Positions 11,520 to 45,505 are shown, counted from the stretch's first letter. The stretch: DNA of 64,000 bases from Nostoc sp. NMS7 (GCF_017115085.1 NZ_JABXKJ010000248.1:4157-68156), one strand, 5' to 3'. Numbers and translations: made by a program. Notes: generated by a model not told the origin, from the letters alone.

Positions 11520-11563
11520 TATTATGTCTATTAAGCTTGCTGCTATTATTTTTTGTTTATATT

Positions 11564-13150
11564 TTAGTGAGAACTTTTCACTTCCCAGAGGTTTTGCTTT
11601 CGACCTTTGTAGACAAGCTTCACTTTCAGTTTTTGATTTTCCTCAAATTTATTGACTGGAAATCTGGGAGACTCCAGTAAAAATATATTGGTGAATTTAT
11701 CAGGAATAATTGGGAGTTGTTTAGTATTTATAAACTGGAACTCAACGTCTGGATTAAGTACATGACTAAGAGATAGTACCGTTGGTATATTCTTTTCAAG
11801 AATTAATAGCGGATGAGAAGTTTGGTTAATTAGCTTAGATGCTATAACGTGGTCAAGAGTTCTTTTAGTCCACCAAGTTTCTGCCTGGGAACTAACATAA
11901 CAAGATATAATCCCCCCCATCAGAAGAGCAACAAAAGATAATTTCCATAAGTTAGCGATAAACAGTTTTCTATTTATAGGATTCATTTTCTTAGCAAATA
12001 GATAGGCTACAGATAAATGAATACCCAAGTAAGAGGGAACAAAATATCGTGCCATAATCGACCGATATCCCCCTGAAACCAAATCTAATAGCACCATGGG
12101 TAGAGAGTTAGCAGCCATCAATATCAGAAGAAAAACTGATATTGATGCGGGCGTTTCACGGCAAACAAAATAAATGGAGTATCCAACTAAAATCAACAGT
12201 AGAGGAATTAAATAAATACCGAAAGATAGATTAAATCTAGAATCTGGTAAGTATGTAAATAAATACCAAAAATCCATAAAGCTATAGCTGATATTTCTCA
12301 TCCATTCTTGAATGATATTTGATATTGGCATAGTTTCAAATGCCCACTTTGAAGTTTCTTGAAAACTATTATAATTAACAGCAATAGCCAAAATCCAAGG
12401 AAGAAATGCTAAAAGTGCCAACAATGACGCGAGAATATAAGCAATGACAGTTTTAGTAAATCTGAAGCGTTCAATGACCAGCAGATATAATCCATTTCCA
12501 ATTGCTACTAATATAGTGAGTAGGTATGTGTATAAGCCAATCGTCATTGTTATTGCATAGAGCAACCAACTCACCTTTGTTTTTAGTCGCAATGCTCGCA
12601 AAAATGACGCACTTGATAGGACAATAGTTACTGCCCATAAACTATAAGGTCTTGCTTCTTGGGCATACAATATATTAAAAGGTGAAACAGCCATAATTGC
12701 CATTGCTATCCACCCCACCATTGATGAACCAAATAATTCTAGACACAACCAATATGTGCAAGGGAAGATTAGCAGACTTATCAGTGCAGAAATACTCCGC
12801 GTTACTGCAATAGAATTACCAAAAAGTTTTACCCAAAACCTGGCTATTAGAAAATATAGTGGTGGAAGCTGTGGTTCTTCTAGTGCTAATCCTTTAATAG
12901 TATCAGTGAATTTTTTTTGAGAATTTGTGCGTTGATATTTGTGTATATCTTCTATAGTAACTATTCTACCATCAAATAGTTGGCTCTCTACTTCTTTTGC
13001 TGTATAGCCTGAGAGCCTTAATGATGTGAAAGTTTCATCTCCCCAATAAATCTTTTTATCTAAATTAATGAATCGAAAAAATATTCCCAATGTCAATACA
13101 ATGATAATTAAAAATTTTATGCCTATTGGAGTTATTGATAATTTCTTCAT
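11564..13150 (-). CDS. polytopic membrane glycosyltransferase (GT39/ArnT-like)
   Basis: 528 aa with about 11 predicted TM segments. N-terminal YWGDE...SLR motif region and a soluble C-terminal domain. Confidence 0.7.
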   Translation of the reverse strand: MKKLSITPIGIKFLIIIVLTLGIFFRFINLDKKIYWGDETFTSLRLSGYTAKEVESQLFDGRIVTIEDIHKYQRTNSQKKFTDTIKGLALEEPQLPPLYFLIARFWVKLFGNSIAVTRSISALISLLIFPCTYWLCLELFGSSMVGWIAMAIMAVSPFNILYAQEARPYSLWAVTIVLSSASFLRALRLKTKVSWLLYAITMTIGLYTYLLTILVAIGNGLYLLVIERFRFTKTVIAYILASLLALLAFLPWILAIAVNYNSFQETSKWAFETMPISNIIQEWMRNISYSFMDFWYLFTYLPDSRFNLSFGIYLIPLLLILVGYSIYFVCRETPASISVFLLILMAANSLPMVLLDLVSGGYRSIMARYFVPSYLGIHLSVAYLFAKKMNPINRKLFIANLWKLSFVALLMGGIISCYVSSQAETWWTKRTLDHVIASKLINQTSHPLLILEKNIPTVLSLSHVLNPDVEFQFINTKQLPIIPDKFTNIFLLESPRFPVNKFEENQKLKVKLVYKGRKQNLWEVKSSH

Positions 13151-13829
13151 TCAACTATTTTCCTCTTTCTTTTTCTATATGGTGTGATTCATATTATGTC
13201 AATCGTTATATTAGTTACGTTTTAGTTTAGCTTCAATCAGTAATTATACTGAATAAATTCTCGCAGGGGCGCACATTTAGCTGTGCATTGGTGTCAACTT
13301 AAGCTCAAACCCCTTTTAAAACCTCCTTTCCAGCCTGATTGGGCTACTTTGCCGCAAGTCAAGATACGGAGCCTCTGATTACTCTCATTAGAGAATATAT
13401 AAATCCTTGTTTCTTCGTGCTTGATTGTAAGCAAAGATTTTTTGGCTTTGCTGATAAAGCAAGGCTTTAACTCATCCCCCGGCTTCAAGCTGGGGGATTT
13501 CGAGTCATTAGTCATTAGTACCAATGACTAATGACTAAATCGGCGGGCGGCTATTCCTCCCACTCCTTGAAGGTAGGGGATTCCCGCCGATTTTCGTTGA
13601 AAAAGATTCAAAGCCAGCATCTGGTTTTTCTCTCTTCACAAATATAAAAGAGCGCTAGGGTATCTCACTTCAAGCATCAGCAAACTTGTAAGCTAACCCC
13701 GTAACAAAATGTAACACGTCAAAATCTTTGTGATTGCTTCGTTGTACTTGCAATCTGCTGTATATTAACCCTGTCCTTTTTCACGTAAAATAAGGGCAAT
13801 AAAACTCAATTTATCAAAGGAGAATACTC

Positions 13830-14414
13830 GTGTCTTATCTCGCAAAGCTAAATCAGTCACCACGTTTAATGACTCTTGCTGCTTGTGCTGCAATCATGGC
13901 TACAATTCCAATTAATTCTGCTTTTGCAGCACCGACCGATCCTAGTAGTTATCCAGCTTCCTGTGGGAACATTCGTGTTACTGGAGCTACCTTAACGGCA
14001 AGTTGTCGCAGAATTAATGGCACATATAGGTCAACATCAATTTTGATTCGGGGAATATACAATAATAATGGAGTTTTGCTTTATAGTAGTAATCCCAGAT
14101 CCGCTAGTAGTTATCAAAATTCTTGTCGGAGAATTGGTGTTACTGGAGCTACCTTAACGGCAAGTTGTCGCAGAATTAATGGCACATATAGGTCAACATC
14201 AATTTTGATTCGGGGAATATACAATAATAATGGAGTTTTGCTTTATAGTAGTAATCCCAGATCCGCTAGTAGTTATCAAAATTCTTGTCGGAGAATTGGT
14301 GTTACTGGAGCTACCTTAACGGCAAGTTGTCGCAGAATTAATGGCACATATAGGTCAACATCAATTTTGATTAAGGGAATATACAATAATAATGGAGTTT
14401 TGCGCTATTCATAG
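13830..14414 (+). CDS. secreted CVNH (cyanovirin-N homology) lectin-like protein with three 54-aa half-domain repeats
   Basis: Signal peptide ...INSAFA/AP. Each unit reads SC-x13-SCRRINGTYRSTSILI-x-GIYNNNGVL-x-Y, which resembles cyanovirin-N halves (Cys spacing of 14). The underlying 162-bp DNA repeats are near-identical. Confidence 0.7.
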   Translation: MSYLAKLNQSPRLMTLAACAAIMATIPINSAFAAPTDPSSYPASCGNIRVTGATLTASCRRINGTYRSTSILIRGIYNNNGVLLYSSNPRSASSYQNSCRRIGVTGATLTASCRRINGTYRSTSILIRGIYNNNGVLLYSSNPRSASSYQNSCRRIGVTGATLTASCRRINGTYRSTSILIKGIYNNNGVLRYS

Positions 14415-25611: not shown

Positions 25612-25684
25612 GGGGAATTAGCTCAGTTGGTAGAGTGCTGCGATCGCACCGCAGAGGCCATCGGTTCAAATCCGTTATTCTCCA
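25612..25684 (+). tRNA. tRNA-Ala (anticodon CGC)
   Basis: Manual cloverleaf: acceptor GGGGAAT/ATTCTCC with a G3:U70 pair, anticodon arm CTGCG-ATCGCAC-CGCAG, and T-loop TTCAAAT. One U-U mismatch in the T stem. Length 73 nt. Confidence 0.85.
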
Positions 25685-25687
25685 TCT

Positions 25688-25844
25688 TGTACATTAAATA
25701 ATTATTGTCACTTTTAAAGAATTAATGTCCATTTTTTCCAAGTTCAGGGGCATAAGTTACGTAGTTTCGCGGCTTTCAGCAATTAAATCGGTTTTAAAGA
25801 ATTATTGTCCAGAGTTGAAACCAGTTTTAAAGAATTATTGTCCA
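25688..25844 (+). repeat. tRNA/CRISPR-proximal transposon end with four TnsB-type ~20-bp repeats
   Basis: Copies of the motif TTTTAAAGAATTATTGTCCA lie at 25692-25711 (terminal), 25712-25731, 25792-25811 and 25825-25844, all in direct orientation. Confidence 0.75.
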
Positions 25845-26033
25845 AAATCAGCCTGTAAAACTCGGCTAAATATATGTTTTCTAATTTAATTGATTACAGT
25901 AAGCCCAAGGCTCTTAAATTACAAGAGTAGCTTTAAAGCTCTTTATTTGCAGTCTAATTACAAAAATATACTACCTCTTGTTTTGCTGTTTCCACCCAAG
26001 AAGAGGCTCCAATAATATATAGCTGCGTTTTAC

Positions 26034-26063
26034 GTGCGATCGCAGCACTCCTTTCAAACCACC
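26034..26063 (-). ncRNA. delocalised short crRNA (truncated repeat + 17-nt homing spacer against tRNA-Ala)
   Basis: 26051-26063 matches the repeat 3' part at 12/13 positions. 26034-26050 is the exact reverse complement of tRNA positions 25633-25649. Confidence 0.7.
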
Positions 26064-26098
26064 CTAATACAGAATTATATAGCCAAAGTGCCATAAAA

Positions 26099-26645
26099 CT
26101 TTCTGCCTACCACCTAAAGGAGGGCTTTGGAAACCCCACACTCCCCTTTGCAGGTAAGACGTAAGACAACTTTAATTCCTTTCAACCCACCACCTAGCGG
26201 AAGGGCTTTAGAAACGAAATTCTCCAAAGCGCCAACTCCAATCCTCATCAGCTTTCAACCCACCACCTAGCGGGAGGGCTTTAGAAACGTTGCTGAAAGT
26301 TATCTTTTAATGGAGACTCGCCTTTCAACCCACCACCTAGCGGGAGGGCTTTAGAAACACCAATTAATCAGGTAGTTGGGGAGACGTTGGCTACTTTCAA
26401 CCCACCACCTAGCGGGAGGGCTTTAGAAACCTATCGTCGGGGTTCATAACGCTGGTTCAGTCAACTTTCAACCCACCACCTAGCGGGAGGGCTTTAGAAA
26501 CCCTGGAGTCGTTGAGTCGTTTTTTGTTACCCGCATCTTTCAACCCACCACCTAGCGGGAGGGCTTTAGAAACACGAATTAACCAGCAGGGCTTGCCTGT
26601 ATCAGAGACTTTCAACCCACCACCTAGCGGGAGGGCTTTAGAAAC
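26099..26645 (-). CRISPR. type V-K CRISPR array, 8 repeats / 7 spacers, transcribed on the minus strand
   Basis: The 37-bp repeat (minus sense) is GTTTCTAAAGCCCTCCCGCTAGGTGGTGGGTTGAAAG. Copies start at 26609, 26537, 26465, 26394, 26322, 26252, 26179 (1 mismatch) and 26099 (degenerate terminal copy). Spacers are 33-44 bp. Confidence 0.95.
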
Positions 26646-26789
26646 CCCACCCACGAAAACTCGTGCCAACAATGGTTTTTGAAGGCAAATTTGACAAGCC
26701 TTCTTTAATTCCTATTTTCTACAGCCAATGAATAAAATTTTATTCATGACTGAAACAGTAATACCCAGTGCAGACAAGAGTTTTGGACG

Positions 26790-27268
26790 ATTGGCAGCAC
26801 CCCAGGGATTTTGACCCCGCTTTGGCTTGCCAAAAATAAAAATTAGGGGGTGGTAGTTCGGTAGCCACCGTGACGGTATACCCGTACCCTTACTTTGTTG
26901 TAAAGTAAGAGGTAATGATCCTCCTCGTAAAACCAAAATCTAAGATTTCAGTAGTACAGGCCGCTCTGGCACCCAACACCAAGCTAAAAGAGTTTGATGT
27001 CAAGAGCTAAGGTTCTGGGCTGTTTGGAACCCTAACACCTTATACTTCCCATGCGTCTCGGTGCGAGTACTTTCTCATCTAACAGCAGTATTAGCTTACC
27101 CAAGCAATTACCACTAACAAACACTTAGATGATCGCACAGGTAGAGTTGGCAGCTACCAGGGCCAGAAAGAATACGCTTTTTAAGCGTTAAACTAACCCA
27201 TTCTTACAGTATTTACATAAAGGGGTCATACTGTCGCATCATTAATAGATGGCACCGATTTAATACAC
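26790..27268 (-). ncRNA. tracrRNA region (boundaries approximate)
   Basis: It lies between the cas12k stop and the array. The minus-strand blocks GGGTTAGTTTAACGC..CTTTCTGGCCCTGGTAGCTGCC (27149-27199) and GGTGGCTACCGAACTACCACCCCC (26846-26869) resemble conserved ShCAST tracrRNA blocks as I recall them. Confidence 0.6.
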
Positions 27269-27296
27269 CAAAATATAGAATATTGAGGTAGAAATT

Positions 27297-29384
27297 TTAT
27301 CTACCTAAAGTATTAATTCTGCATTGGTAAGCGTAAAATGCTAAATCTCTTGCTTGTTCTTCCAGAGTGCCATAATGAGGTTGGATACCATATTCAATAC
27401 TAATTTTAAATTCAGCAGCTTTCGACTTTATGGATTCTTGAAGTCTGTTGTAACTCCAATTGTGTATCTGACGGTTATATTCTTTTACGTATAATTTTTG
27501 ACCATTTACATCACCTGAAATTTTAGTCTCAGCTTTGGCTTGAATTGCACTGGTGCGAATTTCCCTTATATCTTTTAATCTAGGTAGTACAATACAACCT
27601 GCCTGATAAGACTTAGCGATTTCTACTATTCTCTTTGCTAGTAATTTTTCAATGTATTCACCTAGTTTCGATTCGCCTATATTACATGGTGAATCTTTTT
27701 TTTGAGCTTTTTTTCTCTCTATACTTAAATGTACTTGTTGCCGTCGTCTGCGGCTTAACAGGTGAAAAGCATCGCCTAGTAACTGTTTGACTGTATTACA
27801 GGCAAGTACTTTTTTAGTATTTATATCAACTATGGCAACCGTCGCTAACTCAACAGGATGAAAACTGATACCAACAATTATATTAGATTGACCTCGATAA
27901 ACTAGCTTACTAGGACGAGCAAATGAATTCTTAAGCCGAGATAATGAAGATTTATCTTTATTCAGTTGTATTTGTTGATTGTTCTCTAACTTTTTATTTT
28001 CTTCTGCTTTACTTAATCGTTTTTGTGCCTTGTCAGTCTTTTTATTTTCTTCTGCTTTACTTACTCCTTTTTGCGCCTTATCAGTCTTTTCTTTTCTCAC
28101 TTCTTCAGTACCCTCTGCTGTCCATAAACGAGCATCATAGGTACAATGCAGAGCTAATTTATGAACTTTCCACGGGTCACCCTTGCCTTCACATTGTTGC
28201 CATAGCAACTGTGCAGAACGTAGTGTAATTAAACTTCCTGAAAGTTTTTCTTCACTTTTCTCGCTTTTTTTAAAAGCTTTGTGGTCTTCTAGAAAGCGTT
28301 CAAAAAAATGACGTTGGCGTTTATTACAACAAATTTTAAAGTGATATTCACTCCAACCATTGAAGTAAACAACAATATTGCCCTCATTGTTTTTATACCA
28401 AGTTAAATCACCGTATAGATAATCTATAGGGTATGGTAAATGTGATATTTTCCTCGATAAATTAGCTATCCAGTCTTCCCACTCTTTATTATCTTTAGGT
28501 ACTTGATTCATTAAGTTGTCAAATGCTTCACTATATCTTTCTCCTGTTATATCTCTACCACTAGGTAATCGATTATCTTGAATTTGATTCTCTAGACGTT
28601 TTATCTCTACTTTTTTCTCATTACGACGCTTTTTTAGTTTTTGAACATCCTCCTCTACTTCACTAATTTTATTATGATTTTTTATCAGGTAAGCTACTGC
28701 ACATCGGGTTAGAATATCCTGTGTTTGTTTATGGATTTTATATAAAACATTAGTTAATGTTTCTAATTTATTTTCATCTACATTGTTTGGAGAACTAGAA
28801 TCTTCCCTTTGTTCTGCATTGGTACTTTTATTATAAATATTTCTGTTAACTCTTTTTCTAGCTGACTTGGTTTGTTTTACATCTTCATCATTAATAGTAA
28901 GTTGTTTTAGAAATTTTTCTGGTTGAGTAAGTACTTCTTGTGCTTTAGAACGTATTGTCTGTAAATCACAGTTACTTTCACCTACAAGTTCAACATCACT
29001 TTTAAGTATATTTTGGAGAAAGTATTCTTTACCCTCTTTCTGCCTTTTTCGTTTCTGATATAAAGTAAGCCATGAAGAATAAACCTCTTTTACAAAAGAC
29101 TCTGCTGATGAGCGAAGACGGCCTGATTGTTCTTCAATTTCAGGATTTTTTGTGACAATTTTACGTAATTCTACGATTTCTTTCTTAGTTATTTCTCCCT
29201 TTTCTTTATTAGCTTCAAATTCTGGTTGTTCGTTTACACTCTTTAACAATTGAACAATCAGAGGAGTATTTTTTTGAGTCATTTCTTCCCATACTTGGCG
29301 AAGTATATTTTCACTAGCATCTAAATGGCATCGTATGGTTCTATAGACTGAAATCGTGGATTTCTTCTTACGATCGCTACTCAT
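27297..29384 (-). CDS. cas12k: Cas12k (type V-K effector, nuclease-dead)
   Basis: 695 aa, collinear with ShCas12k as I recall it (YFNGWSEYHFKICCNKRQRHFFERFLED, LWTAEGTEEVRKEK, NSFARPSKLVYRGQSNIIVGISF, QLLGDAFHLLSRRRRQQ, IHNWSYNRLQESIKSKAAE). The RuvC-I position reads GISFH, with no Asp. Confidence 0.9.
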   Translation of the reverse strand: MSSDRKKKSTISVYRTIRCHLDASENILRQVWEEMTQKNTPLIVQLLKSVNEQPEFEANKEKGEITKKEIVELRKIVTKNPEIEEQSGRLRSSAESFVKEVYSSWLTLYQKRKRQKEGKEYFLQNILKSDVELVGESNCDLQTIRSKAQEVLTQPEKFLKQLTINDEDVKQTKSARKRVNRNIYNKSTNAEQREDSSSPNNVDENKLETLTNVLYKIHKQTQDILTRCAVAYLIKNHNKISEVEEDVQKLKKRRNEKKVEIKRLENQIQDNRLPSGRDITGERYSEAFDNLMNQVPKDNKEWEDWIANLSRKISHLPYPIDYLYGDLTWYKNNEGNIVVYFNGWSEYHFKICCNKRQRHFFERFLEDHKAFKKSEKSEEKLSGSLITLRSAQLLWQQCEGKGDPWKVHKLALHCTYDARLWTAEGTEEVRKEKTDKAQKGVSKAEENKKTDKAQKRLSKAEENKKLENNQQIQLNKDKSSLSRLKNSFARPSKLVYRGQSNIIVGISFHPVELATVAIVDINTKKVLACNTVKQLLGDAFHLLSRRRRQQVHLSIERKKAQKKDSPCNIGESKLGEYIEKLLAKRIVEIAKSYQAGCIVLPRLKDIREIRTSAIQAKAETKISGDVNGQKLYVKEYNRQIHNWSYNRLQESIKSKAAEFKISIEYGIQPHYGTLEEQARDLAFYAYQCRINTLGR

Positions 29385-29545
29385 GGTGACAACATCTCCA
29401 CCGAATCAATAATTTTTTTTTGTTTGTGTAATTTAGAACTAACTACTTATTCGTCTTCGCCAGATAACGATCGCCACTTGACCTGATCGCCATCCAAAAA
29501 CCTCGGTATTATCGCACTTGTTCAGTAATGGTTTTAATCTACCAT

Positions 29546-29577
29546 AAAACATTGTCAAACATTGTTAAACATTATTG
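29546..29577. promoter_or_regulatory. three tandem AAACATT(G/A)T decamers in the cas12k / RHH divergent promoter region (candidate operator)
   Basis: The sequence is aaaacattgtc aaacattgtt aaacattatt. On the minus strand the middle copy overlaps a TTGACA hexamer facing cas12k. Confidence 0.4.
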
Positions 29578-29602
29578 AGCCTTGTTCCAAGGTTACGGGA
29601 GT

Positions 29603-29803
29603 ATGATGAACTGGCAACAAATCTTTGTAGTGTTGATGAGTCAAAGCGATCGCGTACAAACTTCCATATATTTCCCCAAAGATATCCACGAGGCATTGGT
29701 GAGATGGGCTGAGGAAGAAGACCGTCCCATCAGTAATCTTGTTGTGCGGCTTGTGAGTAAGGCAGTTGAGGAGCGGGAAAAGAAGCAAAATCCGCCGCAA
29801 TAA
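29603..29803 (+). CDS. ribbon-helix-helix (CopG/Arc-type) DNA-binding protein, divergent from cas12k
   Basis: The core VQTSIYFPKDIHEALVRWAEEEDRPISNLVVRLVSKAVEE has the beta-strand/helix/helix pattern of RHH repressors. The start is ambiguous (29582 TTG, 29603 ATG or 29636 ATG). Confidence 0.6.
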   Translation: MMNWQQIFVVLMSQSDRVQTSIYFPKDIHEALVRWAEEEDRPISNLVVRLVSKAVEEREKKQNPPQ

Positions 29804-30000
29804 TATCTAGCTTTTGCAGATAGGACAATTTGTAAATTCCTGGTATACGATATATCCTCAGCCACTACATGAGCAAAGTCCTTGTGCGTGGTATGTTATT
29901 GGTTCTTTGCACGATGTAAAAACTTCAAGGCAAAGTGTCAGACGGGCTTAAGAACGTCTGGCAAAGTTGAGCGGGGGAGGTTTTTTGAAGGCTACACGAA

Positions 30001-31925
30001 ATGGCAATTAAAAAAAGTGAACTTTATAGTTCGTTATGGAAAAGCTGTGATGAACTGCGAGGTGGCATGGATGCCTCGCAGTATAAAGATTATGTACTAG
30101 TTTTATTGTTTGTTAAATATGTATCTGACAAATATGCAGGTGTAGCAGATGCACTGATTGAAGTGCCTGAAGGCGGAGGCTTCCAGGACATTGTTGCCCT
30201 CAAAGGACAGAAAGATATAGGGGATGGCATTAACAAAATTATCGCCAATTTAGCCGAAGCCAATGATTTAAAGGGTGTTATTGATGTAGCTGATTTCAAT
30301 GATGCCGATAAGCTGGGCAAGGGTAAGGAAATGCAAGATAGGCTTTCCAACTTGGTGGCGATTTTTGAAACCCCTGCTTTGAATTTTAGTAAGAACCGCG
30401 CCGATGGTGATGATATTTTGGGCGATGCCTATGAGTACCTGATGCGTAACTTTGCGACGCAATCAGGCAAAAGCAAGGGTCAATTTTATACTCCGGCGGA
30501 AGTCTCCCGTGTAATCTCTCAAGTTATTGGCGTTAATTCAGCCCAAAGTCAGAGTCAAACGATTTACGACCCGACTTGTGGTAGTGGTTCTCTGTTGTTA
30601 AAGTCGGCGGATGAAGCAGAACGGGGCTTAACCATCTACGGACAGGAGATGGACAACGCTACCCGCGCCTTGGCTCGGATGAACATGATCCTGCACGGAC
30701 ACCCTACTGCTGAAATTTGGCAAGACAATACTTTATCAACTCCTTACTTCAAAGATGCGGATGGTAGCCTGAAAACTTTTGATTTTGCTGTGGCTAATCC
30801 TCCCTTTTCCTCGAAGGCTTGGAGCAATGGACTTAATCTAGCCAAAGACGAATTTAAACGGTTTGATAACTATGGTATCCCTCCGGCTAAAAATGGGGAC
30901 TATGCTTTTTTGCTGCACATGGTTCGCTCCCTAAAAAGTCAAGGCAAAGGGGCGATTATTCTGCCGCATGGGGTGCTGTTTCGCGGGAATGCGGAGGCGG
31001 AAATTCGGAAAAATCTGATTAGCAAGGGAATTATCAAGGGGATTATTGGGCTACCGCCGAATCTGTTTTATGGGACGGGGATTCCAGCCTGCATTATTGT
31101 GTTAGACAAGGAAGATGCCGAGAATCGCCAAGGCATTTTTATGATTGATGCCAGCAAGGGGTTTGTTAAAGACGGCAATAAAAACCGCCTACGGGAGCAG
31201 GACATTCATAAAATTGTTGATGTCTTCAACAAACAGCTTGAAGTGGCGAAGTATTCGCGGATGGTGTCAGTTCAGGAAATTGCGGGGCATGAGTACAATC
31301 TGAATATCCCGCGCTATATCGACAGTCAGGAAGAGGAAGATATTCAGGATATTGAGGCGCATCTGTTGGGGGGGATACCCGCTATTTTAAAGCTGAACAG
31401 GCGGCGATCGCTACCTTGGAAACGAAAAAGGATGAAATTGTTCGCCAGCAGGAGGAACTGCAAGAAGAACATGGCGGTGAGGAGGGTTTGCTAGAGGAAG
31501 CCACTAATGACAGTGGGAAAATTACCAAAGCGAATGTCAATGATCGCATTAAGGCAATCAAGAATGATGCCACGTTTGCGGATGAGTTAAAGGTATTAAA
31601 GGCTTATTTAAAGCTGATTGAGCAAGAGGCGGAAATTAGTAAAGAAATTAAAGTATTGACTCAATTTTTGGATAATTATATTTTAACAAGATACGGGGAT
31701 TTAACCGAGGACGAGATAAAAACGCTGGTAGTAGATGATAAGTGGATGCCGACGTTAAGACAGGCGATCGCTTCAGAGATGGATCGGATTTCGCAACGGT
31801 TGACAAAGCGAATCCAGGAGTTGGCGGAACGATATGATACGCCTTTACCGGAGTTGACGAGTCGTGTGGAGGAGTTGACGGCTAAGGTTGAAGCGCATTT
31901 GCAGAGGATGGGGTTGGTGTGGTAA
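30001..31925 (+). pseudogene. hsdM: type I R-M methyltransferase subunit HsdM, reading frame broken at a G7 tract
   Basis: HsdM_N region (LWKSCDELRGGMDASQYKDYVLVLLFVKYVSDK) and N6-MTase motifs (DPTCGSGSLL, VANPPFS). After GGIP (31369-31380) the frame decays into an R/K-rich tail. The coiled-coil C-terminus continues in another frame (ORF 31416-31925). Confidence 0.8.
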
Positions 31926-32392
31926 CGGATAAACAGGAAGGAAACTATAAAATTTATCTTGATGTTTGTTGTCTAAATCGTCCTTTTGACGACTGCACAC
32001 AAGAGCGAGTTCGTTTAGAAGGGGAAGCTATTCTTAGCATTATGGAGCGCATTCGTATTAGAGAATGGCGACTTGTTACCAGCGAAGCTATCAGGGTGGA
32101 GTTAGAGAAAATGCGTAATCTCGACAAATTAGAGAATATATTAAAATTCTTGGAATTTGCTGTGATTACTATCAATATAGATGAAGGTGTAGATTTTCGC
32201 TCACAGCAATTGGAGAATTTAGGTTTTGGTCTTTATGATTCTTTTCATATTGCTTGTGCAGAAGTTGCTCAGGCAGATGTCTTACTTTCTACTGATGATC
32301 GGTTACTGAAGAACTCACTACGGCATCAAGGTTTGTTAAAAGTGTCTGTGGATAATCCTGTAACTTGGTTGATGAATACTTATTTAAATTAG
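31919..32392 (+). CDS. PIN-domain protein (toxin-like), paralog 1
   Basis: Contains YKIYLDVCCLNRPFDD ... DSFHIACAE ... LLSTDDRLL. It is 40-50% identical by eye to ORF 34169-34654. Its start overlaps the hsdM stop (GTGGTAA). Confidence 0.7.
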   Translation: MVTDKQEGNYKIYLDVCCLNRPFDDCTQERVRLEGEAILSIMERIRIREWRLVTSEAIRVELEKMRNLDKLENILKFLEFAVITINIDEGVDFRSQQLENLGFGLYDSFHIACAEVAQADVLLSTDDRLLKNSLRHQGLLKVSVDNPVTWLMNTYLN

Positions 32393-32404
32393 GAGGATAA
32401 ATAA

Positions 32405-32605
32405 ATGATGACACCAATTGAGTTGAGAAAAAAAGGTTATCAAATTTTAGTAGAACATTTGGGTCAAGTAGATGCTATTCGCTTTTTACAACAAGCTGGA
32501 TGGGGAAGCGGTGACTATACACAAGAAAGAAAGGAAACGTTAGATAAAGTCACAAGAGAAGAGTTTTGGGAAGACCTGAAGCGGATTAGAAAAACATCGT
32601 GTTGA
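32405..32605 (+). CDS. small partner protein of PIN paralog 1 (antitoxin-like)
   Basis: MTPIELRKKGYQILVEHLG..DAIRFLQQ..GSGDYTQER is a paralog of ORF 34641-34856. Its last codons are supplied by the 21-bp repeat array. Confidence 0.5.
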   Translation: MMTPIELRKKGYQILVEHLGQVDAIRFLQQAGWGSGDYTQERKETLDKVTREEFWEDLKRIRKTSC

Positions 32606-32705
32606 AGTACCCAAACATCGTGTTGAAGTACCCAAACATCGTGTTGCAGTACCCAAATATCGTGTTGAAGTACCCAAATATCGTGTTGAAGTACCCAAAT
32701 ATCAT
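32588..32705. repeat. tandem array of ~5.5 units of a 21-bp repeat related to the 6474-6690 array
   Basis: The unit is tacccaaa(c/t)atcgtgttgaag, head to tail. It shares the core ccaaa-n-atcgtgttgaag with the array at 6474. Confidence 0.85.
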
Positions 32706-32740
32706 ATAGAAAGGTTAATTAAGCTCTTTAAACGATTTAC

Positions 32741-32840
32741 GCAGAGGATTAAGGAGTTGGTGGAACGGTATGATATGCCTTTATAAGAGTTAACGGCTAA
32801 GGTGGAGGGGCATTTGCAGAGAATGGGGTTGGTGTGGTGA
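32741..32840 (+). other. degenerate duplicate of the hsdM 3' end (scar) abutting hsdS
   Basis: About 85% identical to 31795-31925 with a ~22-nt deletion. It ends with the same ...GGGGTTGGTGTGGTGA junction, which overlaps the hsdS GTG start. Confidence 0.7.
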
Positions 32841-34159
32841 AAAAAAGTCTGAATCACGGATTAGAGGGATTACGGGATGACACGGCAGGGATAGAGGGGT
32901 ATAAAAAAACTGAGGTGGGGGTGATTCCTGATGATTGGGAAGTAAAAAGGTTAGGTGATATTGCTGATATAAAAACAGGCCCATTCGGCTCCTCTCTACA
33001 TGAAAAAGATTATGTTGAGGATGGCACACCTATTATCACAGTCGAACATTTAGGTGAAAAAGGGGTAGTGCATAAAAATTTGCCAATGGTTTCCCATGCA
33101 GATAAAAATAGATTAAGTGCTTACATTCTTAAAACAGGTGATATTGTTTTTAGCCGTGTTGGATCTGTAGATAGAAATTCATTAATTAGCGATGTGGAAA
33201 ATGGCTGGCTATTTTCTAGCCGCTTACTAAGAATTAGAATTAATCCTCAAAATATTAGCCCTGCATACCTGAGCTATCATTTTCATCAAGAACCAACAAA
33301 ACAGAGGATTAGAAGTGTTGCAGTTGGTCAAACAATGGCATCACTTAATACTGAAATACTAAAAAATATTGAAGTTATTCTTCCGCCAACTCGTCTTGAA
33401 CAAAAAGCGATCGCTCAATCCCTCAGCGATGTCGATGCCTTGATTACAGAGTGCGATCGCATCATCTCCAAAAAGCGCAACACCAAGCAAGGCACGATGC
33501 AGCAACTCCTTACGGGCAAAAAACGCCTCCCCGGTTTTAGCGGTAAGTGGGAGGTGAAGAAATTAGAAGAAGTAACAGCAATTACAAGACTCGCAGGTGC
33601 AGAATATTCTTCTGTATGGAAGGAAGATGATAATGGTGAAATAATTGCATTGAGAGGATTTAATATTGTAAAAAATCGAATCATTGAGAAAGACTTAGCC
33701 AGAATTTCAAATGAACTTTCTTTGAAGCTAAATAGATCAAGACTTTATAGAGGCGATGTTGTTTATCCTTGTGTAGGAACAATTGGAAATGCAGCTGTTA
33801 TAGAGGAAGATGATAAGTACCACATTCAGCAAAATATTGCCAAAATAACTCCTATCAAAAGTGTCCTTTCATCATATTATTTAGCTCATTATTTGATAAG
33901 TCCTCTTGGATTGGATGAAGTCTTAAGGTTTAACGCAACTTCCAGTCAGCCAAATGTTTTAGTAGGAAGTTTAAGAAAGTATAGGATTCCCCTCACTTCT
34001 ATACCCGAACAAAAAGCGATCGCCCAAATCCTCAGCGACATGGATACAGAAATCGCAGGCTTAGAACAAAAGCGCGATAAATACAAAGCTATCAAACAGG
34101 GCATGATGCAAGAATTATTAACCGGAAAAACTCGCCTAAAATATGATTTAAATAAATAA
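32834..34159 (+). CDS. hsdS: type I R-M specificity subunit HsdS (two TRDs)
   Basis: Two target-recognition halves, each followed by a conserved helix (LEQKAIAQSLSDVDALI; PEQKAIAQILSDMDTEIAGLEQKRDKYKAIKQGMMQELLTGKTRL). Confidence 0.9.
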   Translation: MVKKSLNHGLEGLRDDTAGIEGYKKTEVGVIPDDWEVKRLGDIADIKTGPFGSSLHEKDYVEDGTPIITVEHLGEKGVVHKNLPMVSHADKNRLSAYILKTGDIVFSRVGSVDRNSLISDVENGWLFSSRLLRIRINPQNISPAYLSYHFHQEPTKQRIRSVAVGQTMASLNTEILKNIEVILPPTRLEQKAIAQSLSDVDALITECDRIISKKRNTKQGTMQQLLTGKKRLPGFSGKWEVKKLEEVTAITRLAGAEYSSVWKEDDNGEIIALRGFNIVKNRIIEKDLARISNELSLKLNRSRLYRGDVVYPCVGTIGNAAVIEEDDKYHIQQNIAKITPIKSVLSSYYLAHYLISPLGLDEVLRFNATSSQPNVLVGSLRKYRIPLTSIPEQKAIAQILSDMDTEIAGLEQKRDKYKAIKQGMMQELLTGKTRLKYDLNK

Positions 34160-34168
34160 TTAAATAAT

Positions 34169-34654
34169 ATGGGTAGAAAATATAAAATATATCTTGATGT
34201 TTGTTGTTTAAATCGTTCATTTGACGACCAAACACAGCCGCGAATTCGTTTAGAAACAGAAGCGATTTTAGAAATTATCAGCCGTTGTCGAGATGGAGAA
34301 TGGGAATTGGTCAGTAGTACAGCCCTAGAATCGGAAATTGCACAAACCCCAGATGTAGCCAGAAGAGAACAGGTACTTGAAGCATTAGCGATCGCTCAAC
34401 ATCAGATTTTAGTCACCGAAGAAATATCTAGACGAGCTATAGAATTAACAAACTTTAATATTAAAAATTTTGATGCGCTTCATATCGCTTGTGCTGAAGG
34501 GAACGCCGACATTTTCTTGACAACTGATAACCGTCTATTGTCAAGAGCATTAAACTATAAGAATAACTTAAACATAATAGTTGCTAACCCAATGATCTGG
34601 TTAGCAGAAGTTACCACTAATCTCGTAGAAGGAGGAGAAAATGACCCCGATTGA
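34169..34654 (+). CDS. PIN-domain protein (toxin-like), paralog 2
   Basis: Contains YKIYLDVCCLNRSFDD ... DALHIACAE ... FLTTDNRLL. Confidence 0.7.
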   Translation: MGRKYKIYLDVCCLNRSFDDQTQPRIRLETEAILEIISRCRDGEWELVSSTALESEIAQTPDVARREQVLEALAIAQHQILVTEEISRRAIELTNFNIKNFDALHIACAEGNADIFLTTDNRLLSRALNYKNNLNIIVANPMIWLAEVTTNLVEGGENDPD

Positions 34655-34856
34655 ATTATATAGAAAAGGATTTCAAGCCTTAGTAGATGCTTTGGGATAT
34701 CCTGATGCTATCCGGTTTATTCGCCAATTTGACAACGGAAGTGGAGACTACACCCAAGAACGTCATCAATGGCTCGATCAGCTAACGATGGATGAAATCC
34801 TCACAGACATTAAGCAACGCCAAAAAATATCTGACTCCAAGAATCAGGAACAATAA
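34641..34856 (+). CDS. small partner protein of PIN paralog 2 (antitoxin-like)
   Basis: Contains MTPIELYRKGFQALVDALGYPDAIRFIRQFDNGSGDYTQER. It overlaps the PIN gene by 14 nt. Confidence 0.5.
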   Translation: MTPIELYRKGFQALVDALGYPDAIRFIRQFDNGSGDYTQERHQWLDQLTMDEILTDIKQRQKISDSKNQEQ

Positions 34857-34945
34857 TGAGCCAAGTTGGACAACGGGAACGCCTAAGCCAAAACCGCAAA
34901 CAGGGAATCATGCAAGAATTATTAACCGGAAAGACAAGACTAATT
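34856..34945 (+). other. chimeric scar: hsdR 5' remnant fused to hsdS 3' remnant
   Basis: 34856-34898 is about 80% identical to the hsdR start (35802-35844). 34899-34945 is about 85% identical to the hsdS 3' end (34093-34140). The translation reads MSQVGQRERLSQNR|KQGIMQELLTGKTRL. Confidence 0.6.
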
Positions 34946-35075
34946 AGCAGTTCTTAATCAACGCCAAGGTTTTCAACCGCCAGTCTCTAAAATAGAAGTT
35001 AGAAAGCTCCCCCATTAGCAGCAAACGCCGCACACACTAACGACCAATTCCAAATGACAAGGGCTAAAGCATATT

Positions 35076-35312
35076 ATGGAACACATTGCTACCAGCGAAT
35101 TACCCGAAACGCTTCAACAAATATTTGCAGAAATACAACGCACCAAAACACCCTTAACCGTCACCCATGAAGGAGAACCCTTAGTCATTATCTATCCTGC
35201 CACTCCTCAACCCCACCGCCCAGCATTTGCAGTAATGAAGGGTAGCGGCGAAATATTGGGAGAGGTGATTGCTCCAGTAATTCCTGCTAACACATGGGAA
35301 GCCCTCCAGTGA
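35076..35312 (+). CDS. Phd/YefM-type antitoxin
   Basis: 78 aa with TPLTVTHEGEPLVIIYPA, typical of the Phd/YefM fold. It overlaps the downstream PIN gene. Confidence 0.65.
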   Translation: MEHIATSELPETLQQIFAEIQRTKTPLTVTHEGEPLVIIYPATPQPHRPAFAVMKGSGEILGEVIAPVIPANTWEALQ

Positions 35313-35698
35313 AGCTCTTAATTGATACCCACATCTGGCTTTGGTATTTGCTTGGTAACGAACGCCTATCTCCTCAGCTTCAAACCATTATTGCAGCAGG
35401 AACAACCGAACTTTGGCTCAGTCCAATTAGTATCTGGGAAACGCTACTCTTAGCAGAAAAAGGACGACTATCTTTACAGCCGAATCCAGTTGCATGGGTC
35501 GATTTAGCCTTAAATACCCTAGAAATTCGTGAGGCTCCACTTAATCGCCACATCGCTATTTTAAGCCGTCAGATTAATTTACCACACCAAGACCCAGGCG
35601 ATCGCTTTATTGCAGCTACCGCAGTTTACCACCAGTTGATATTAGCTACAGTCGATACCAATCTCACGGGTGCTTCCTGGTTACAAACATTAAGCTAG
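35294..35698 (+). CDS. vapC: VapC-family PIN toxin
   Basis: Contains LLIDTHIWLW ... SPISIWE ... DPGDRFIAATA ... LATVDTNL, giving the acidic PIN quartet pattern. Confidence 0.8.
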   Translation: MGSPPVKLLIDTHIWLWYLLGNERLSPQLQTIIAAGTTELWLSPISIWETLLLAEKGRLSLQPNPVAWVDLALNTLEIREAPLNRHIAILSRQINLPHQDPGDRFIAATAVYHQLILATVDTNLTGASWLQTLS

Positions 35699-35801
35699 AC
35701 AGAAAATTCACGGATAACACAAATAAAGATGACATAGTTTGATAAACAGTGTCATATTTAAAGCTGAGTAAATCCGTGATTATCACAGTGAGAGAGTTGC
35801 T

Positions 35802-38800
35802 ATGAGCAAGGTCGGACAACGCGAACTCCCAACCCAAAACCGCATTGTGCAATTATTCCAGCAACAATTAAACTATCGGTATCTGGGTAATTGGCACTAC
35901 CGACCTAACAACAGCAACATTGAAACGGAAATCCTCAGCACCTTCCTTGGCGACAAACAAGGCTACAGCAACAGCCTCATCACCAAAGCCTTGTATGAAC
36001 TCAACAAAGTCGCAGGCGACAAAAGCCTTTATGACATCAACAAAGAAGTTTATAGCCTGCTGCGTTATGGGGTGAAAGTCAAAGAAGAAGTTGGCGAGAA
36101 TACCCAAACCGTTTGGCTGATCAACTGGGAAGAACCCCTAGAAAATGACTTTGCGATTGCTGAAGAAGTCACAGTTAAAGGCAAAAACCCTAAACGCCCA
36201 GATATCGTACTTTATGTTAATGGTATTGCGATCGGTGTACTCGAACTCAAACGCAGCATCATTTCCGTCTCTGAAGGCATCCGCCAAAACCTCGATAACC
36301 AAAAATCCATATTTATTAAATCCTTCTTCACCACCATGCAGTTAGTCATGGCAGGTAACGACACTGAAGGACTCCGCTACGCCACAATTGAAACCCCAGA
36401 AAAATACTTCCTCACTTGGAAAGAAGATACTAACAGCGACATCACCGATCCTTTAGATAAACACCTGCTGCAACTCTGCGCCAAAGAACGCTTTCTAGAG
36501 TTAATTCACAACTTTATCGTCTTTGACCGGGGTATAAAAAAAGTCTGCCGCCATAACCAGTATTTTGGGGTTAATGCTGCCCAATCTTACCTCCGTCGCC
36601 GAGAGGGGGGTATTATCTGGCATACTCAAGGCAGTGGTAAAAGCTTGACAATGGTTTGGCTAACTAAATGGATTCGGGAAAACATTACTGATGCTCGTGT
36701 TCTGATAATTACTGATCGAGATGAACTAGACAAGCAAATTGAGAATGTCTTTAAGGGAGTCAACGAAGCGATTTACCGCACTACAAGCGGGAAAGACCTA
36801 ATTAACAAACTCAACAGCACCACCACCTGGTTACTCTGCTCCCTAATCCACAAATTTGGCAAGAAAGACAAGGCAGACGACGCAGACTACAACAGCTACA
36901 TCGAAGAACTCAAGCGCAGCCTGCCCAGCGACTTTAGCGCCAAAGGCGATATCTATGTATTTGTGGATGAATGTCATCGCACCCAATCAGGCACACTGCA
37001 CGACGCGATGAAAGAAATCCTACCCAATGCTGTATTCATAGGCTTTACAGGCACACCCCTACTCAAAAAAGACAAGCAAAACAGCATCAACGTTTTTGGT
37101 GATTACATTCACACCTACACATTCAAAAAAGCCGTAGCCGACCAGGTTATCCTTGATTTGCGCTACGAAGCTCGTAATGTTGACCAAAACATTACCTCAC
37201 AAACCAAAATTGACCAGTGGTTTGAAGCCAAAACTAGAGGTTTAACAGAACACGCCAAAACCCTACTCAAGAAACGCTGGGGAAATCTGCAAAAAGTTCT
37301 CAGTTCAAAATCCCGGTTGGAAAGAATTGTCAGCGATATTCTGCTAGATTTTGAAACTAAAGACCGCTTGCAAAGTGGTCATGGTAACGCTATGCTCATC
37401 TCTGGTAGCATTTACCAAGCTTGTAAATATTACGAGTTATTCCAAAGCGCTGGTTTTATCAAATGTGCCATTGTCACATCCTACAAACCTTCCCCGAATG
37501 ATATCAAAGGCGAAAGTACGGGAGAAGAGGAACTGACGGAAAAATTACGGCAGTACGAAATTTATCAAAAAATGCTCAACGGCAAAGCGGCAGAAGTATT
37601 TGAAGACGAAGTTAAAAATAAATTTGTCGAAGAACCAGCCCAAATGAAACTGCTGATTGTAGTCGATAAGTTGCTGACGGGATTCGATGCACCTTCTGCC
37701 ACTTATCTCTACATCGACAAAACCATGCGCGACCACGGACTATTTCAAGCCATTTGTCGCGTCAACCGCTTGGATGGTGAAGATAAAGAATATGGCTACA
37801 TCATCGACTACAAAGACTTATTTAAAAGCCTGGAAAAATCAATTAACGATTACACCAGCGAAGCATTTGAAGACTACGAACCAGACGACATCGATGGATT
37901 ATTGAGTGACAGAATCGCCAAAGGCAGAGAACGCCTAGAAAATTCCAGAGAAAGCATTAAAGCCTTGTGCGAATCTGTAGAGCAACCCCAAGACACCCAT
38001 GCCTATATTCGCTATTTCTGCGGTGCCGATACTGAAAACCCAGACTTTATAAAAGAAAATCAACAACAGCGCATTGCCCTTTATAAATACACATCAGCTT
38101 TAGTCCGAGCCTATGCTAACCTATCCAATGATATGGCAGAAGCCGGATACACCACAACAGAAACTGAAATTATTAAACAAGAAGTTAAGCATTACGAACA
38201 GGTACGCGCAGAAGTAAAGCTAGCCAGTGGTGATTATATTGACTTGAAAGCCTACGAACCCGCCATGCGTCACTTGATTGATACCTACATTGGGGCAGAA
38301 GAAAGCGAAATAATTTCAGCCTTCGACGACATGACACTAATTCAGTTGATTGTCGAACGCGGTGCAAATGCAGTTGAGGCATTACCCAAAGGCATCAAGC
38401 AAAACCAAGAAGCCGTCGCGGAAACCATCGAAAACAACTTACGCAAAGTTATTATAGATCAACAGCCGACCAACCCGAAATATTTCGACAAAATGTCCAC
38501 ACTGTTGAATGAGTTAATCCAAGCACGAAAAGCAGCCAGCCAAAACTATAAAGCCTACTTACAGAAAATTGTTGAGTTAAGTAAACAAGTTGCTCAACCG
38601 AGTAGCTCATCACAGTATCCTCAATCATTGAACTCTCCTGCTAAAAGAGCTTTATACGATAACCTTAATCAAGACGAAGCGTTAGCTCTAGCGATAAATG
38701 ACGCGATTCGCAAAATCAAAAAAGATGGGTGGCGTGGAAACATAATGAAAGAGCGCGAAGTAAAAAATGCCATTAAGAAATATTTAGATTCCCCGGAAGA

Positions 38801-38846
38801 TTGCGATCGCATTTTTGAAATAGTCAAGAGCCAAAGCGAGTATTAG
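35802..38846 (+). CDS. hsdR: type I restriction endonuclease subunit HsdR
   Basis: 1014 aa. N-terminal nuclease region (PDIVLYVNGIAIGVLELK), helicase motifs (TQGSGKSLTM; VDECHRTQSG; TGTPL) and a C-terminal helical domain. Confidence 0.95.
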   Translation: MSKVGQRELPTQNRIVQLFQQQLNYRYLGNWHYRPNNSNIETEILSTFLGDKQGYSNSLITKALYELNKVAGDKSLYDINKEVYSLLRYGVKVKEEVGENTQTVWLINWEEPLENDFAIAEEVTVKGKNPKRPDIVLYVNGIAIGVLELKRSIISVSEGIRQNLDNQKSIFIKSFFTTMQLVMAGNDTEGLRYATIETPEKYFLTWKEDTNSDITDPLDKHLLQLCAKERFLELIHNFIVFDRGIKKVCRHNQYFGVNAAQSYLRRREGGIIWHTQGSGKSLTMVWLTKWIRENITDARVLIITDRDELDKQIENVFKGVNEAIYRTTSGKDLINKLNSTTTWLLCSLIHKFGKKDKADDADYNSYIEELKRSLPSDFSAKGDIYVFVDECHRTQSGTLHDAMKEILPNAVFIGFTGTPLLKKDKQNSINVFGDYIHTYTFKKAVADQVILDLRYEARNVDQNITSQTKIDQWFEAKTRGLTEHAKTLLKKRWGNLQKVLSSKSRLERIVSDILLDFETKDRLQSGHGNAMLISGSIYQACKYYELFQSAGFIKCAIVTSYKPSPNDIKGESTGEEELTEKLRQYEIYQKMLNGKAAEVFEDEVKNKFVEEPAQMKLLIVVDKLLTGFDAPSATYLYIDKTMRDHGLFQAICRVNRLDGEDKEYGYIIDYKDLFKSLEKSINDYTSEAFEDYEPDDIDGLLSDRIAKGRERLENSRESIKALCESVEQPQDTHAYIRYFCGADTENPDFIKENQQQRIALYKYTSALVRAYANLSNDMAEAGYTTTETEIIKQEVKHYEQVRAEVKLASGDYIDLKAYEPAMRHLIDTYIGAEESEIISAFDDMTLIQLIVERGANAVEALPKGIKQNQEAVAETIENNLRKVIIDQQPTNPKYFDKMSTLLNELIQARKAASQNYKAYLQKIVELSKQVAQPSSSSQYPQSLNSPAKRALYDNLNQDEALALAINDAIRKIKKDGWRGNIMKEREVKNAIKKYLDSPEDCDRIFEIVKSQSEY

Positions 38847-38847
38847 G

Positions 38848-39552
38848 ATGCACCAAATAACTGTCGGTGAACTCGTCATAGACGTTGCCAGAAAAGACAT
38901 TAAAAACTTGCACTTGGCAGTGTACCCCCCCGATGGTCGAGTACGTATCGCCACACCCTTAAACATTGATGACGAAGCTGTGCGTTTATTCGCTATCTCC
39001 AAACTAGCCTGGATTGAAAAGCATAAAGCTAACTTTGAAACGCAAGAACGCCAGTCAAAAAGAGAATTTGTATCTGGTGAAAGTCATTACTTTCAAGGAA
39101 AACGCTATTTATTAAATGTCATTTATGGACTGGGTAATCCCAAAGTAGAAGTTAGAAATAATACTTATATCGACCTTTATGTTAGAGAAGGAAGTAATGA
39201 AGCGCAACGCCAACAAGTCATGATGTCTTGGTATCGACAGCAGTTAAAACAGGAAATTCCCCCATTAATCGAAAAATGGCAAAGGAACATGGGAGTAAAG
39301 GTTGAGGACTGGGGGATAAAGCTGATGAAAACCAAATGGGGTACTTGCAACATCCAAGCAAAACGTATCTGGCTCAACCTCGAACTAGCGAAAAAAGATA
39401 AGCGTTGCCTAGAGTATGTTGTAGTTCATGAAATGGTGCATCTGTTAGAACGTCATCACGGCGATCGCTTTGTGGCTTTCATGAATAAGTTTCTGCCGAA
39501 TTGGAAATTTTGTAAGGATGAGTTAAACCGCTCCCCACTTGGAAGCTATTAA
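38848..39552 (+). CDS. DUF45/M48-type (YgjP-like) zinc metallopeptidase
   Basis: HEMVHLLERHH zinc motif near the C-terminus. It starts 2 nt after the hsdR stop. Confidence 0.8.
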   Translation: MHQITVGELVIDVARKDIKNLHLAVYPPDGRVRIATPLNIDDEAVRLFAISKLAWIEKHKANFETQERQSKREFVSGESHYFQGKRYLLNVIYGLGNPKVEVRNNTYIDLYVREGSNEAQRQQVMMSWYRQQLKQEIPPLIEKWQRNMGVKVEDWGIKLMKTKWGTCNIQAKRIWLNLELAKKDKRCLEYVVVHEMVHLLERHHGDRFVAFMNKFLPNWKFCKDELNRSPLGSY

Positions 39553-39814
39553 GTTCGACTATTAGCCCGATTTAGCTTATAAAGAGCAGGTGATCGCCAT
39601 TTTCTGTGATAGTTCGGTTAATAACAATCTTAACAAACGCAAGCAAGACCAAATTGAGCGTTATAATTTCAGCTACAACATAAATTACCTTGTCTTGGCT
39701 CTACGACATAATGAAGATAGCTGATGAAGTTGGGAATTCTAGCAATTCTTAATCCCACCAAGACTGATTTACGATTTACACAGTCAACAATACGATGTAA
39801 AGTATTGTACAAAA

Positions 39815-40726: not shown

Positions 40727-41030
40727 TCCTACTTTTTTCTTATGTTAATATAGTATAACATATTCTTGTTTTAGCTAAATTTTAATGCAAATATTTTTAT
40801 TTATAAAAAACTTTATCTTAATTAAAATAAAATTTTTTGAAGGGATTATTTTTTGACTTTAAATGATTTATATTTAGTAGTTTTTTTTAAATAAAAATTC
40901 ACTATTTATTTGTTATTATATTGGATAAAATAGGTTTTACTATTTGTGCCTTTTTTTTCAATATATAAGTGTGAGAAATCCCGGTTCAGTTTTGATTCGA
41001 CTCAATGAGCGCACTCAGCCGGAGCATTAC

Positions 41031-41543: not shown

Positions 41544-41669
41544 AACTTACATTTAAATACCTAAACGGCTTGCTATAGACTAGGAAAATAAAACTGTTTA
41601 ACAACTGCCATAGTAGTCCAGTCAGGTATCTTGGCAGGCAGCAAGCTGGTTGAAATCCTGGATGCTAAG

Positions 41670-41719
41670 AGTATTATTCGGTTAACCGAATCTAATTGTT
41701 CGGTTAACCGAATAATACT
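41670..41719. promoter_or_regulatory. double palindrome (two TTCGGTTAACCGAA sites inside a larger 21-bp inverted repeat)
   Basis: agtattattcggttaaccgaa-tctaattg-ttcggttaaccgaataatact. It lies 127-176 bp upstream of the tniQ start. Confidence 0.4.
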
Positions 41720-43572: not shown

Positions 43573-43577
43573 TTTAC

Positions 43578-43775: not shown

Positions 43776-43805
43776 TTCAACAATTTTCGATCTATTAGAC
43801 TTTTG

Positions 43806-45479: not shown

Positions 45480-45505
45480 ACACTTGACCTGTCTTCCAAG
45501 AAAAA

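Follow-up and report, generated by a model that had tools for sequence, protein, structure and literature searches.

Why does a 20-kb transposon in Nostoc sp. NMS7 sit directly behind a tRNA-Ala gene, and why does it carry a 17-nt copy of part of that gene close to its own end? Judging from the stretch of DNA analyzed here (64,000 nt, referred to below as the window), the probable answer, to which we give a probability of roughly 0.93, is that a short unit on the minus strand at 26063 to 26034 is the attachment-site guide of a CRISPR-associated transposon (CAST) of the V-K_V2 subgroup. Guides through which Cas12k transposons home to tRNA genes have been known since 2021 and are also covered in reviews.

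A truncated repeat and a 17-nt match to the tRNA-Ala gene

The unit and its putative target consist of the following parts, with positions counted from the first letter of the window.

25612-25684, plus strand: tRNA-Ala(CGC), the attachment-site gene, pointing at the transposon end (ARAGORN; Rfam RF00005, 62.5 bits)
25629-25632, plus strand: GGTA, directly 5' of the protospacer, with GTA (25630-25632) as the PAM (from the sequence; GGTA or GGTT in most relatives)
25633-25649, plus strand: protospacer of 17 bp, tRNA nt 22-38, from the 3' strand of the D-stem to the anticodon loop (exact match)
26050 to 26034, minus strand: putative homing (anchor) spacer GAGTGCTGCGATCGCAC, 17 nt, directly 3' of GGTGGTTTGAAAG
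26063 to 26051, minus strand: truncated repeat GGTGGTTTGAAAG, a 3' remnant that retains the segment pairing with the tracrRNA
26079 to 26074, minus strand: TATAAT, resembling a -10 box and located 10 nt 5' of the remnant (candidate promoter)

The remnant GGTGGTTTGAAAG is identical in 12 of 13 positions to GGTGGGTTGAAAG, the sequence with which all seven array repeats end; further 5', the resemblance to the array repeat is gone and the rest of the repeat is absent. The original prediction, which had noticed this remnant, placed it outside the array. This is correct in that it lies beyond the seven repeats, but it is not far off, as an eighth, degenerate repeat (26100-26135) is found only 36 nt upstream. 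The unit is located at the array tail, on the side facing the transposon end and 346 bp away from it. The original prediction read the sequence itself correctly at every point.

The spacer GAGTGCTGCGATCGCAC is present in exactly 2 copies in the 64-kb window, at 25633-25649 on the plus strand and at 26034-26050 on the minus strand, with 0.07 matches expected by chance when 3 mismatches are allowed (dinucleotide-preserving shuffles). The perfect match to tRNA-Ala that had been claimed from the first reading of the sequence does end after 17 nt, the next base being G in the guide and C in the tRNA. The predicted GTN-compatible PAM and the 55-bp offset from the protospacer start to the first transposon base (the terminus TGTACA at 25688) were likewise borne out, and both fall within the properties published for type V-K CASTs, which use a GTN PAM and have PAM-to-LE distances of 46 to 82 nt (Ziemann 2023, PMC9938897). 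For the V-K_V2 subgroup, the PAM-to-LE distance is 54 nt (Ziemann 2025, PMC12416283), and a protospacer-to-end distance of 54 is seen in 15/15 V2 relatives, compared to 55 in the window. The spacer copy within the element has AAG instead of GTN as its 5' flank, as read from the sequence, and therefore is not a target.

For transcription, processing, Cas12k loading, and transposition, we infer the course of events from published V-K CASTs. Transcription of the unit would run toward the transposon end, initiated at the unit's own -10 box or continuing from the tracrRNA/array precursor, and would yield a minimal crRNA consisting of the 13-nt repeat 3' end and the 17-nt spacer, the size of processed Cas12k crRNAs (Hsieh & Peters 2021, 10.1101/2021.02.06.429022). 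Its repeat part would pair with the tracrRNA anti-repeats (the predicted duplex with anti-repeat 2 has -13.3 kcal/mol for the remnant versus -14.7 kcal/mol for the array repeat), and Cas12k would be loaded. The complex would then recognize GTA and the 17-bp protospacer in tRNA-Ala(CGC), and TniQ, TnsC, and TnsB would insert the element at a fixed distance, with the CRISPR-proximal end approximately 54 to 55 bp from the protospacer start. Such an insertion point is just beyond the tRNA 3' end and would leave the tRNA gene intact.

Anatomy and state of the element

The element spans 25688-45688 (20,001 bp). Starting at the tnsB side and following the minus strand, the order is tnsB, tnsC, tniQ, cargo, a divergent ribbon-helix-helix (RHH) gene, and cas12k; then come the predicted tracrRNA region, the array with the truncated unit behind it, and the end that adjoins the tRNA gene.

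25688-25843, plus strand: CRISPR-proximal end (LE in the naming of Ziemann), terminal TGTACA, with inverted repeat and TnsB sites
25694, 25714, 25794, and 25827: four TnsB-site-like 17-mers in the CRISPR-proximal end (sequence search)
26100-26135, minus strand: degenerate terminal CRISPR repeat, the eighth, 36 nt with a 1-nt deletion (repeat search)
26179-26645, minus strand: CRISPR array, seven 37-nt repeats GTTTCTAAAGCCCTCCCGCTAGGTGGTGGGTTGAAAG with spacers of 33 to 36 nt (repeat search)
26810-27262, minus strand: predicted tracrRNA region, limits approximate, placed from the literature (anti-repeats; V2 tracrRNA in PMC12416283)
26858 to 26846, minus strand: anti-repeat 2, AACUACCACCCCC, in the predicted tracrRNA region
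27170 to 27166, minus strand: candidate anti-repeat 1, CUUUC, in the predicted tracrRNA region
27297-29384, minus strand: cas12k, 695 aa, full length (phmmer versus PDB ShCas12k, E = 1e-138, residues 16-691)
29582-29803, plus strand: small ribbon-helix-helix (Arc/CopG-type) regulator, divergent from cas12k (Pfam RHH_5, 7.5e-11)
41031-41543, minus strand: tniQ, 170 aa (Pfam TniQ; 93.5% identity to TniQ of locus L081)
42826-43572, minus strand: tnsC, truncated (Pfam AAA_22/TniB; residues 1-238 of the 306-aa V2 TnsC)
43581-45479, minus strand: tnsB with a premature in-frame stop, codon 558 of 633 (Pfam Mu-transpos_C/rve)
45505-45688, minus strand: tnsB-proximal end, terminal TGTCCA, inverted repeat with the other end

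The termini form a 43-nt inverted repeat with 1 mismatch, and the TnsB-site 17-mer is found in six copies at the ends, versus 0.5 expected. By its gene content, the element is a type V-K CAST, with all core gene types present (Cas12k, TnsB/TnsC/TniQ, array, and ends). Pfam searches with nine ORFs, a part of those in the element, gave no match to TnsA and a single match to TniQ, with no second, TnsD-like TniQ seen.

Membership in V-K_V2 is defined by Cas12k identity of >60% to V2 members and ≤47.5% to V1, and this subgroup is further marked by an Arc_2-type regulator next to cas12k and a TnsC of ~306 aa (Ziemann 2025, PMC12416283). The Cas12k encoded in the window, which is 85 to 90% identical to Nostoc homologues named Cas12k, shows 72% identity to that of Scytonema sp. 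NIES-4073 (V2) and 39 to 44% identity to those of V1-type loci. Two V2 hallmarks, the repeat 3' end GGTGGTGGGTTGAAAG and anti-repeat 2 AACUACCACCCCC, are both present, and the tnsC product is 97 to 98% identical to 306-aa homologues over the 238 matching residues. On the strength of the repeat end, anti-repeat 2, the RHH regulator, the 306-aa TnsC homologues, and the 72% Cas12k identity, the element can be assigned to V-K_V2. It differs from the V2 elements described by Ziemann in the offset of 55 instead of 54 and in the damage to tnsB and tnsC.

Several features of the element stand apart from homing. The 695 aa of Cas12k, compared to 661 to 679 aa in its closest homologues, are due to a 48-nt tandem repeat (2.3 copies, 27990-28097) that encodes a lysine-rich duplication (KTDKAQK..SKAEENKK). 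The cargo (30001-39552) includes a type I restriction-modification system (HsdM, HsdS, HsdR, and a YgjP-like peptidase) and two PIN-domain genes; restriction-modification/PIN cargo is also found in the closest relative (L081/L083). The seven array spacers, examined as a control for the guide match, have no other match in the 64-kb window at ≤2 mismatches; they also have none in the plasmid and phage collections searched. Two of them contain similar stretches of ~13 nt at their PAM-distal ends, ACCAATTAATCAG (26359-26371, plus strand) and ACGAATTAACCAG (26574-26586, plus strand), the spacer part that is trimmed off Cas12k crRNAs; these two spacers may have originated from related protospacers.

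The transposition genes show clear signs of decay. The in-frame stop in tnsB (43806-43808, minus strand) cuts off the C-terminal ~75 aa of a frame that otherwise is 99% identical to the 633-aa TnsB of a Nostoc metagenome-assembled genome (MAG). In tnsC, the similarity to the 306-aa V2 TnsC ends after residue 238, and the C-terminal 68 aa are absent. In comparison with L081, a stretch of 3.25 kb that includes the tnsC 3' end (10719-13973 in L081) is missing, the corresponding gap region in the window being 41544-42858. In the closest relative, tnsB and tnsC are 98 to 99% identical to those in the window. With a nonsense codon in tnsB and the 3' end of tnsC lost, the copy in the window is probably immobile now. 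In the same 10719-13973 stretch, L081 has additional fragments resembling tnsB and tnsC, suggestive of scars left by recombination between CAST copies.

The junctions have been altered as well. There is no 5-bp target-site duplication (CATCT at 25683-25687 versus ACTGC at 45689-45693), and the flank on the tnsB side (45701-46297) consists of a 5'-truncated helicase-like fragment with an MrfA Zn-binding (DUF1998-like) domain, beyond which lie rpoZ and then an rplL-rplJ-rplA-rplK-nusG-tRNA-Trp cluster. The missing duplication and the truncated flank gene indicate that the present junctions did not arise from one simple insertion and point to a rearrangement during or after insertion. V-K CASTs are known from the literature to transpose replicatively, and either intramolecular replicative transposition or recombination between copies is a possible cause of the missing duplication. 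The closest relative, L083 (Nostoc MAG GCA_036919695.1), is inserted at the same place in its host, where a HAD hydrolase gene is followed by tRNA-Ala, and carries the same guide. Its CRISPR-proximal end has lost the terminal ~100 bp (9120-9180 in L083), including TGTACA and the first two TnsB sites, and with its LE terminus deleted it is unusable as a control for the target-site duplication.

The decay bears on what the guide does at present. That homing is entirely a matter of the past, and that the unit now either serves a CRISPRi-like or site-marking Cas12k bound to the tRNA-Ala gene or is an inert relic, seems to us rather unlikely but deserves a hearing: tnsB is interrupted by a nonsense codon and tnsC is shortened, but no damage is apparent in cas12k, the tracrRNA region, or the guide; the protospacer survives insertion; and the crRNA, as read from the sequence, would anneal to the template strand of tRNA-Ala(CGC). 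However, V-K CASTs encode repressors of cas12k (PMC9938897), an RHH gene is present in this element, and the perfect guide/tRNA match could merely mean that the insertion is recent. The permanent targeting of the tRNA-Ala gene by a non-cutting effector, proposed along with the guide, is putative, and both the damage to the transposase genes and the repressor-type gene make it less likely. Present-day activity is doubtful, given the tnsB nonsense codon, the truncated tnsC, and the RHH regulator next to cas12k. The unit is best seen as an attachment-site guide that records a homing event and in principle is still its tool.

Guides and tRNA genes across Cas12k loci

What was computed here comprises the sequence anatomy, the 17-nt match, the PAM and the offset, and also the way in which spacer and tRNA co-vary, the last of these from 80 Cas12k loci in species-representative genomes that were collected by a Cas12k profile search. 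In each locus, tRNAs downstream of cas12k were located, and a script searched the interval from cas12k to the tRNA for the longest sequence shared exactly with the tRNA region. Relatives proved to carry the same kind of guide: a spacer matching the locus's own tRNA, mostly of 17 nt and preceded by a remnant ending in ..GGNGGNTTGAAAG (pattern ..GG[T/A]GG[G/T]TTGAAAG), was found in ~50 of the ~58 loci with a downstream tRNA. The targets belong to 14 tRNA species (Ala-CGC, Ala-GGC, Val-TAC, Val-GAC, Pro-CGG, Leu-TAG, Leu-CAA, Thr-TGT, Gly-CCC, Ser-TGA, Arg-CCG, Cys-GCA, Lys-CTT, and Asp-GTC), and the PAMs are mostly GGTA or GGTT. The same 17-mer at other tRNAs, which the original prediction had named as a sign of coincidence, was not encountered; instead, the 17-mer differs between loci and matches the tRNA of its own locus. 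The proposal of a built-in homing guide that explains the element's site is thus supported by the anatomy, the PAM, the offset, and the spacer/tRNA co-variation in relatives.

Two other explanations of the 17-nt copy fare much worse. It is very improbable that it represents a duplicated attachment site, i.e., a captured piece of the tRNA as in integrase-type islands rather than a guide RNA gene. Although tRNA fragments are common in islands inserted at tRNAs, the copy in this element is inverted relative to the tRNA, covers nt 22-38 and not the 3' end, lies ~350 bp inside the transposon end, and corresponds exactly to the 17 nt used by Cas12k, joined to the repeat segment that pairs with the tracrRNA; moreover, no integrase was found among the nine element ORFs scanned against Pfam, and the transposase of this element is TnsB. 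A coincidental match arising from HIP1-rich DNA, to which one might appeal because the HIP1 octamer GCGATCGC makes up 8 of the 17 nt of the protospacer and a near-copy of the 17-mer with 2 mismatches, the only one in the window, is found at 48284-48300, is effectively refuted by the spacer/tRNA co-variation, as relatives at Val, Pro, Leu, Gly, Thr, Arg, Ser, Cys, Lys, and Asp tRNAs have other, HIP1-free 17-mers that match their own tRNAs. In the window, the exact match is unique and far above chance, the 17-mer abuts the repeat remnant, a GTN PAM correctly spaced from the transposon end precedes the target, and the near-copy is preceded by TTT, not GTN.

The exact 17-mer of the window is also found in at least 5 other public Nostoc assemblies (loci L001, L004, L012, L020, and L083); a search for it in published supplementary data gave no match. 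The remnant GGTGGTTTGAAAG, with T in place of G, is identical in all 17 V2 relatives and the window; in one of these relatives, Scytonema sp. NIES-4073 (L007), it is followed by a spacer with one mismatch to tRNA-Ala(GGC). This locus is one of six (with L002, L009, L011, L014, and L051) in which the homing spacer has 1 or 2 mismatches to the adjoining tRNA, at positions 4, 6, or 7. The elements with mismatched spacers are still located at the canonical 54-bp offset, and either PAM-proximal mismatches are tolerated or the sequences have drifted since insertion.

The unit has close counterparts in the literature. The delocalized crRNA of V-K CASTs (Saito 2021, Cell 184:2441), as it is presented in PMC8730458, PMC11656645, and PMC9798831, likewise consists of a partial repeat and a short tRNA-matching spacer near the transposon end, apart from the array; its cases are ShCAST and AcCAST, and the unit in the window would be another instance, in V2, otherwise alike. 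The truncated repeat-spacer unit of Tn7-CRISPR-Cas12K elements (att-crRNA; Hsieh & Peters 2021, 10.1101/2021.02.06.429022) shares the ~13-bp repeat end and 17-bp spacer, the location at the array end or 3' of it, the exact 17-bp protospacer, the GTN PAM, and tRNA attachment sites. The R* and anchor spacer of Ziemann 2023 (PMC9938897) are also the same, with an R* of ~12 nt, a spacer of 17 nt, and a tRNA pointing at LE. The attachment-site guides of type I-F3 CASTs (Petassi 2020, as described in PMC11406308) follow the same logic of a privatized self-targeting guide, kept apart from array guides against mobile elements. However, according to that description, they work with Cascade and TniQ and have full-length spacers and diverged repeats, with no tracrRNA and no 17-nt truncation. 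In contrast, in TnsD/TniQ homing (Tn7 at glmS; type I-B and I-D CASTs at glmS or tRNA genes), the site is recognized by a DNA-binding protein and not by an RNA guide.

With this type of guide published and the same guide/tRNA pair present in several public Nostoc genomes, the discovery value of the locus is small. For the element itself, the guide fixes the borders at 25688-45688, assigns it to V-K_V2, explains the insertion site, and shows a decaying copy. The small additions made here are the decay of this copy, the fixed variant remnant, and a conserved -10 box specific to V2.

The region upstream of the guide in V2

The candidate -10 box is a part of a larger conserved block. The motif TAnAAT is invariant in 16/16 aligned V2 loci (window included), as is the whole block TAnAAT-N10-GGTGGTTTGAAAG-GAG, with ATTAG (26064-26068) directly before the remnant in the window. 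The block is kept even though the flanks differ wholly between the Ala(CGC) and Ala(GGC) lineages; part of this invariance may be due to inheritance, V2 members being closely related. For Tn7-CRISPR-Cas12K elements, Hsieh & Peters 2021 reported no conserved motif outside the unit, whereas in V2 we see TAnAAT 10 nt upstream together with the fixed G-to-T change.

One could tentatively suggest that the V2 homing guide is a separate, independently transcribed unit with a repeat-variant remnant, although we consider this rather less likely than not. The TAnAAT box would start the RNA 2 to 5 nt before the remnant, such that no 5' processing would be needed, and the fixed variant remnant GGGTGGTTTGAAAG has 7 contiguous pairs with V2 anti-repeat 2 despite its truncation. 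A strict consensus promoter scan called no promoter for the guide unit. If such a separate unit did exist, chromosomal homing would be controlled apart from array-guided hops, and the earlier claim of no conserved motif outside the unit would be contradicted. The V2-specific -10 box and the variant remnant are a small lead for V2 CAST engineering and for studies of guide expression.

Several related ideas were discarded. The -10 box is not a general V-K feature: among 31 non-redundant V1 loci, a TAnnnT hexamer ending 6 to 12 nt upstream of the unit was found in 9, against background counts of 8, 8, 8, and 4, and thus was not enriched. A compensatory gain in tracrRNA pairing through the G-to-T change would amount to only 0.6 kcal/mol (-13.3 versus -12.7), which is too weak. 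Folding of 31 loci revealed no consistent hairpin or terminator after the guide (z-scores of ~0), and a GCUGCG/CGCAGC stem after the guide in the Ala(CGC) group was dropped as not general across loci.

A search for an operator common to the guide upstream region and the cas12k, tracrRNA, or tnsB promoters returned only short, non-conserved words. A separate 11-mer, CAGGTCAAGTG, is found on the minus strand at 29475-29485, in the cas12k/RHH intergenic region, and at 45481-45491, directly upstream of the tnsB start, with 0.05 matches expected by chance. The V2 loci fetched (L001-L020) lack it upstream of cas12k, and its conservation in the fetched loci is confined to the region upstream of tnsB in the closest relatives. 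Within the element in the window, CAGGTCAAGTG is a possible operator for the RHH regulator, common to both sites.
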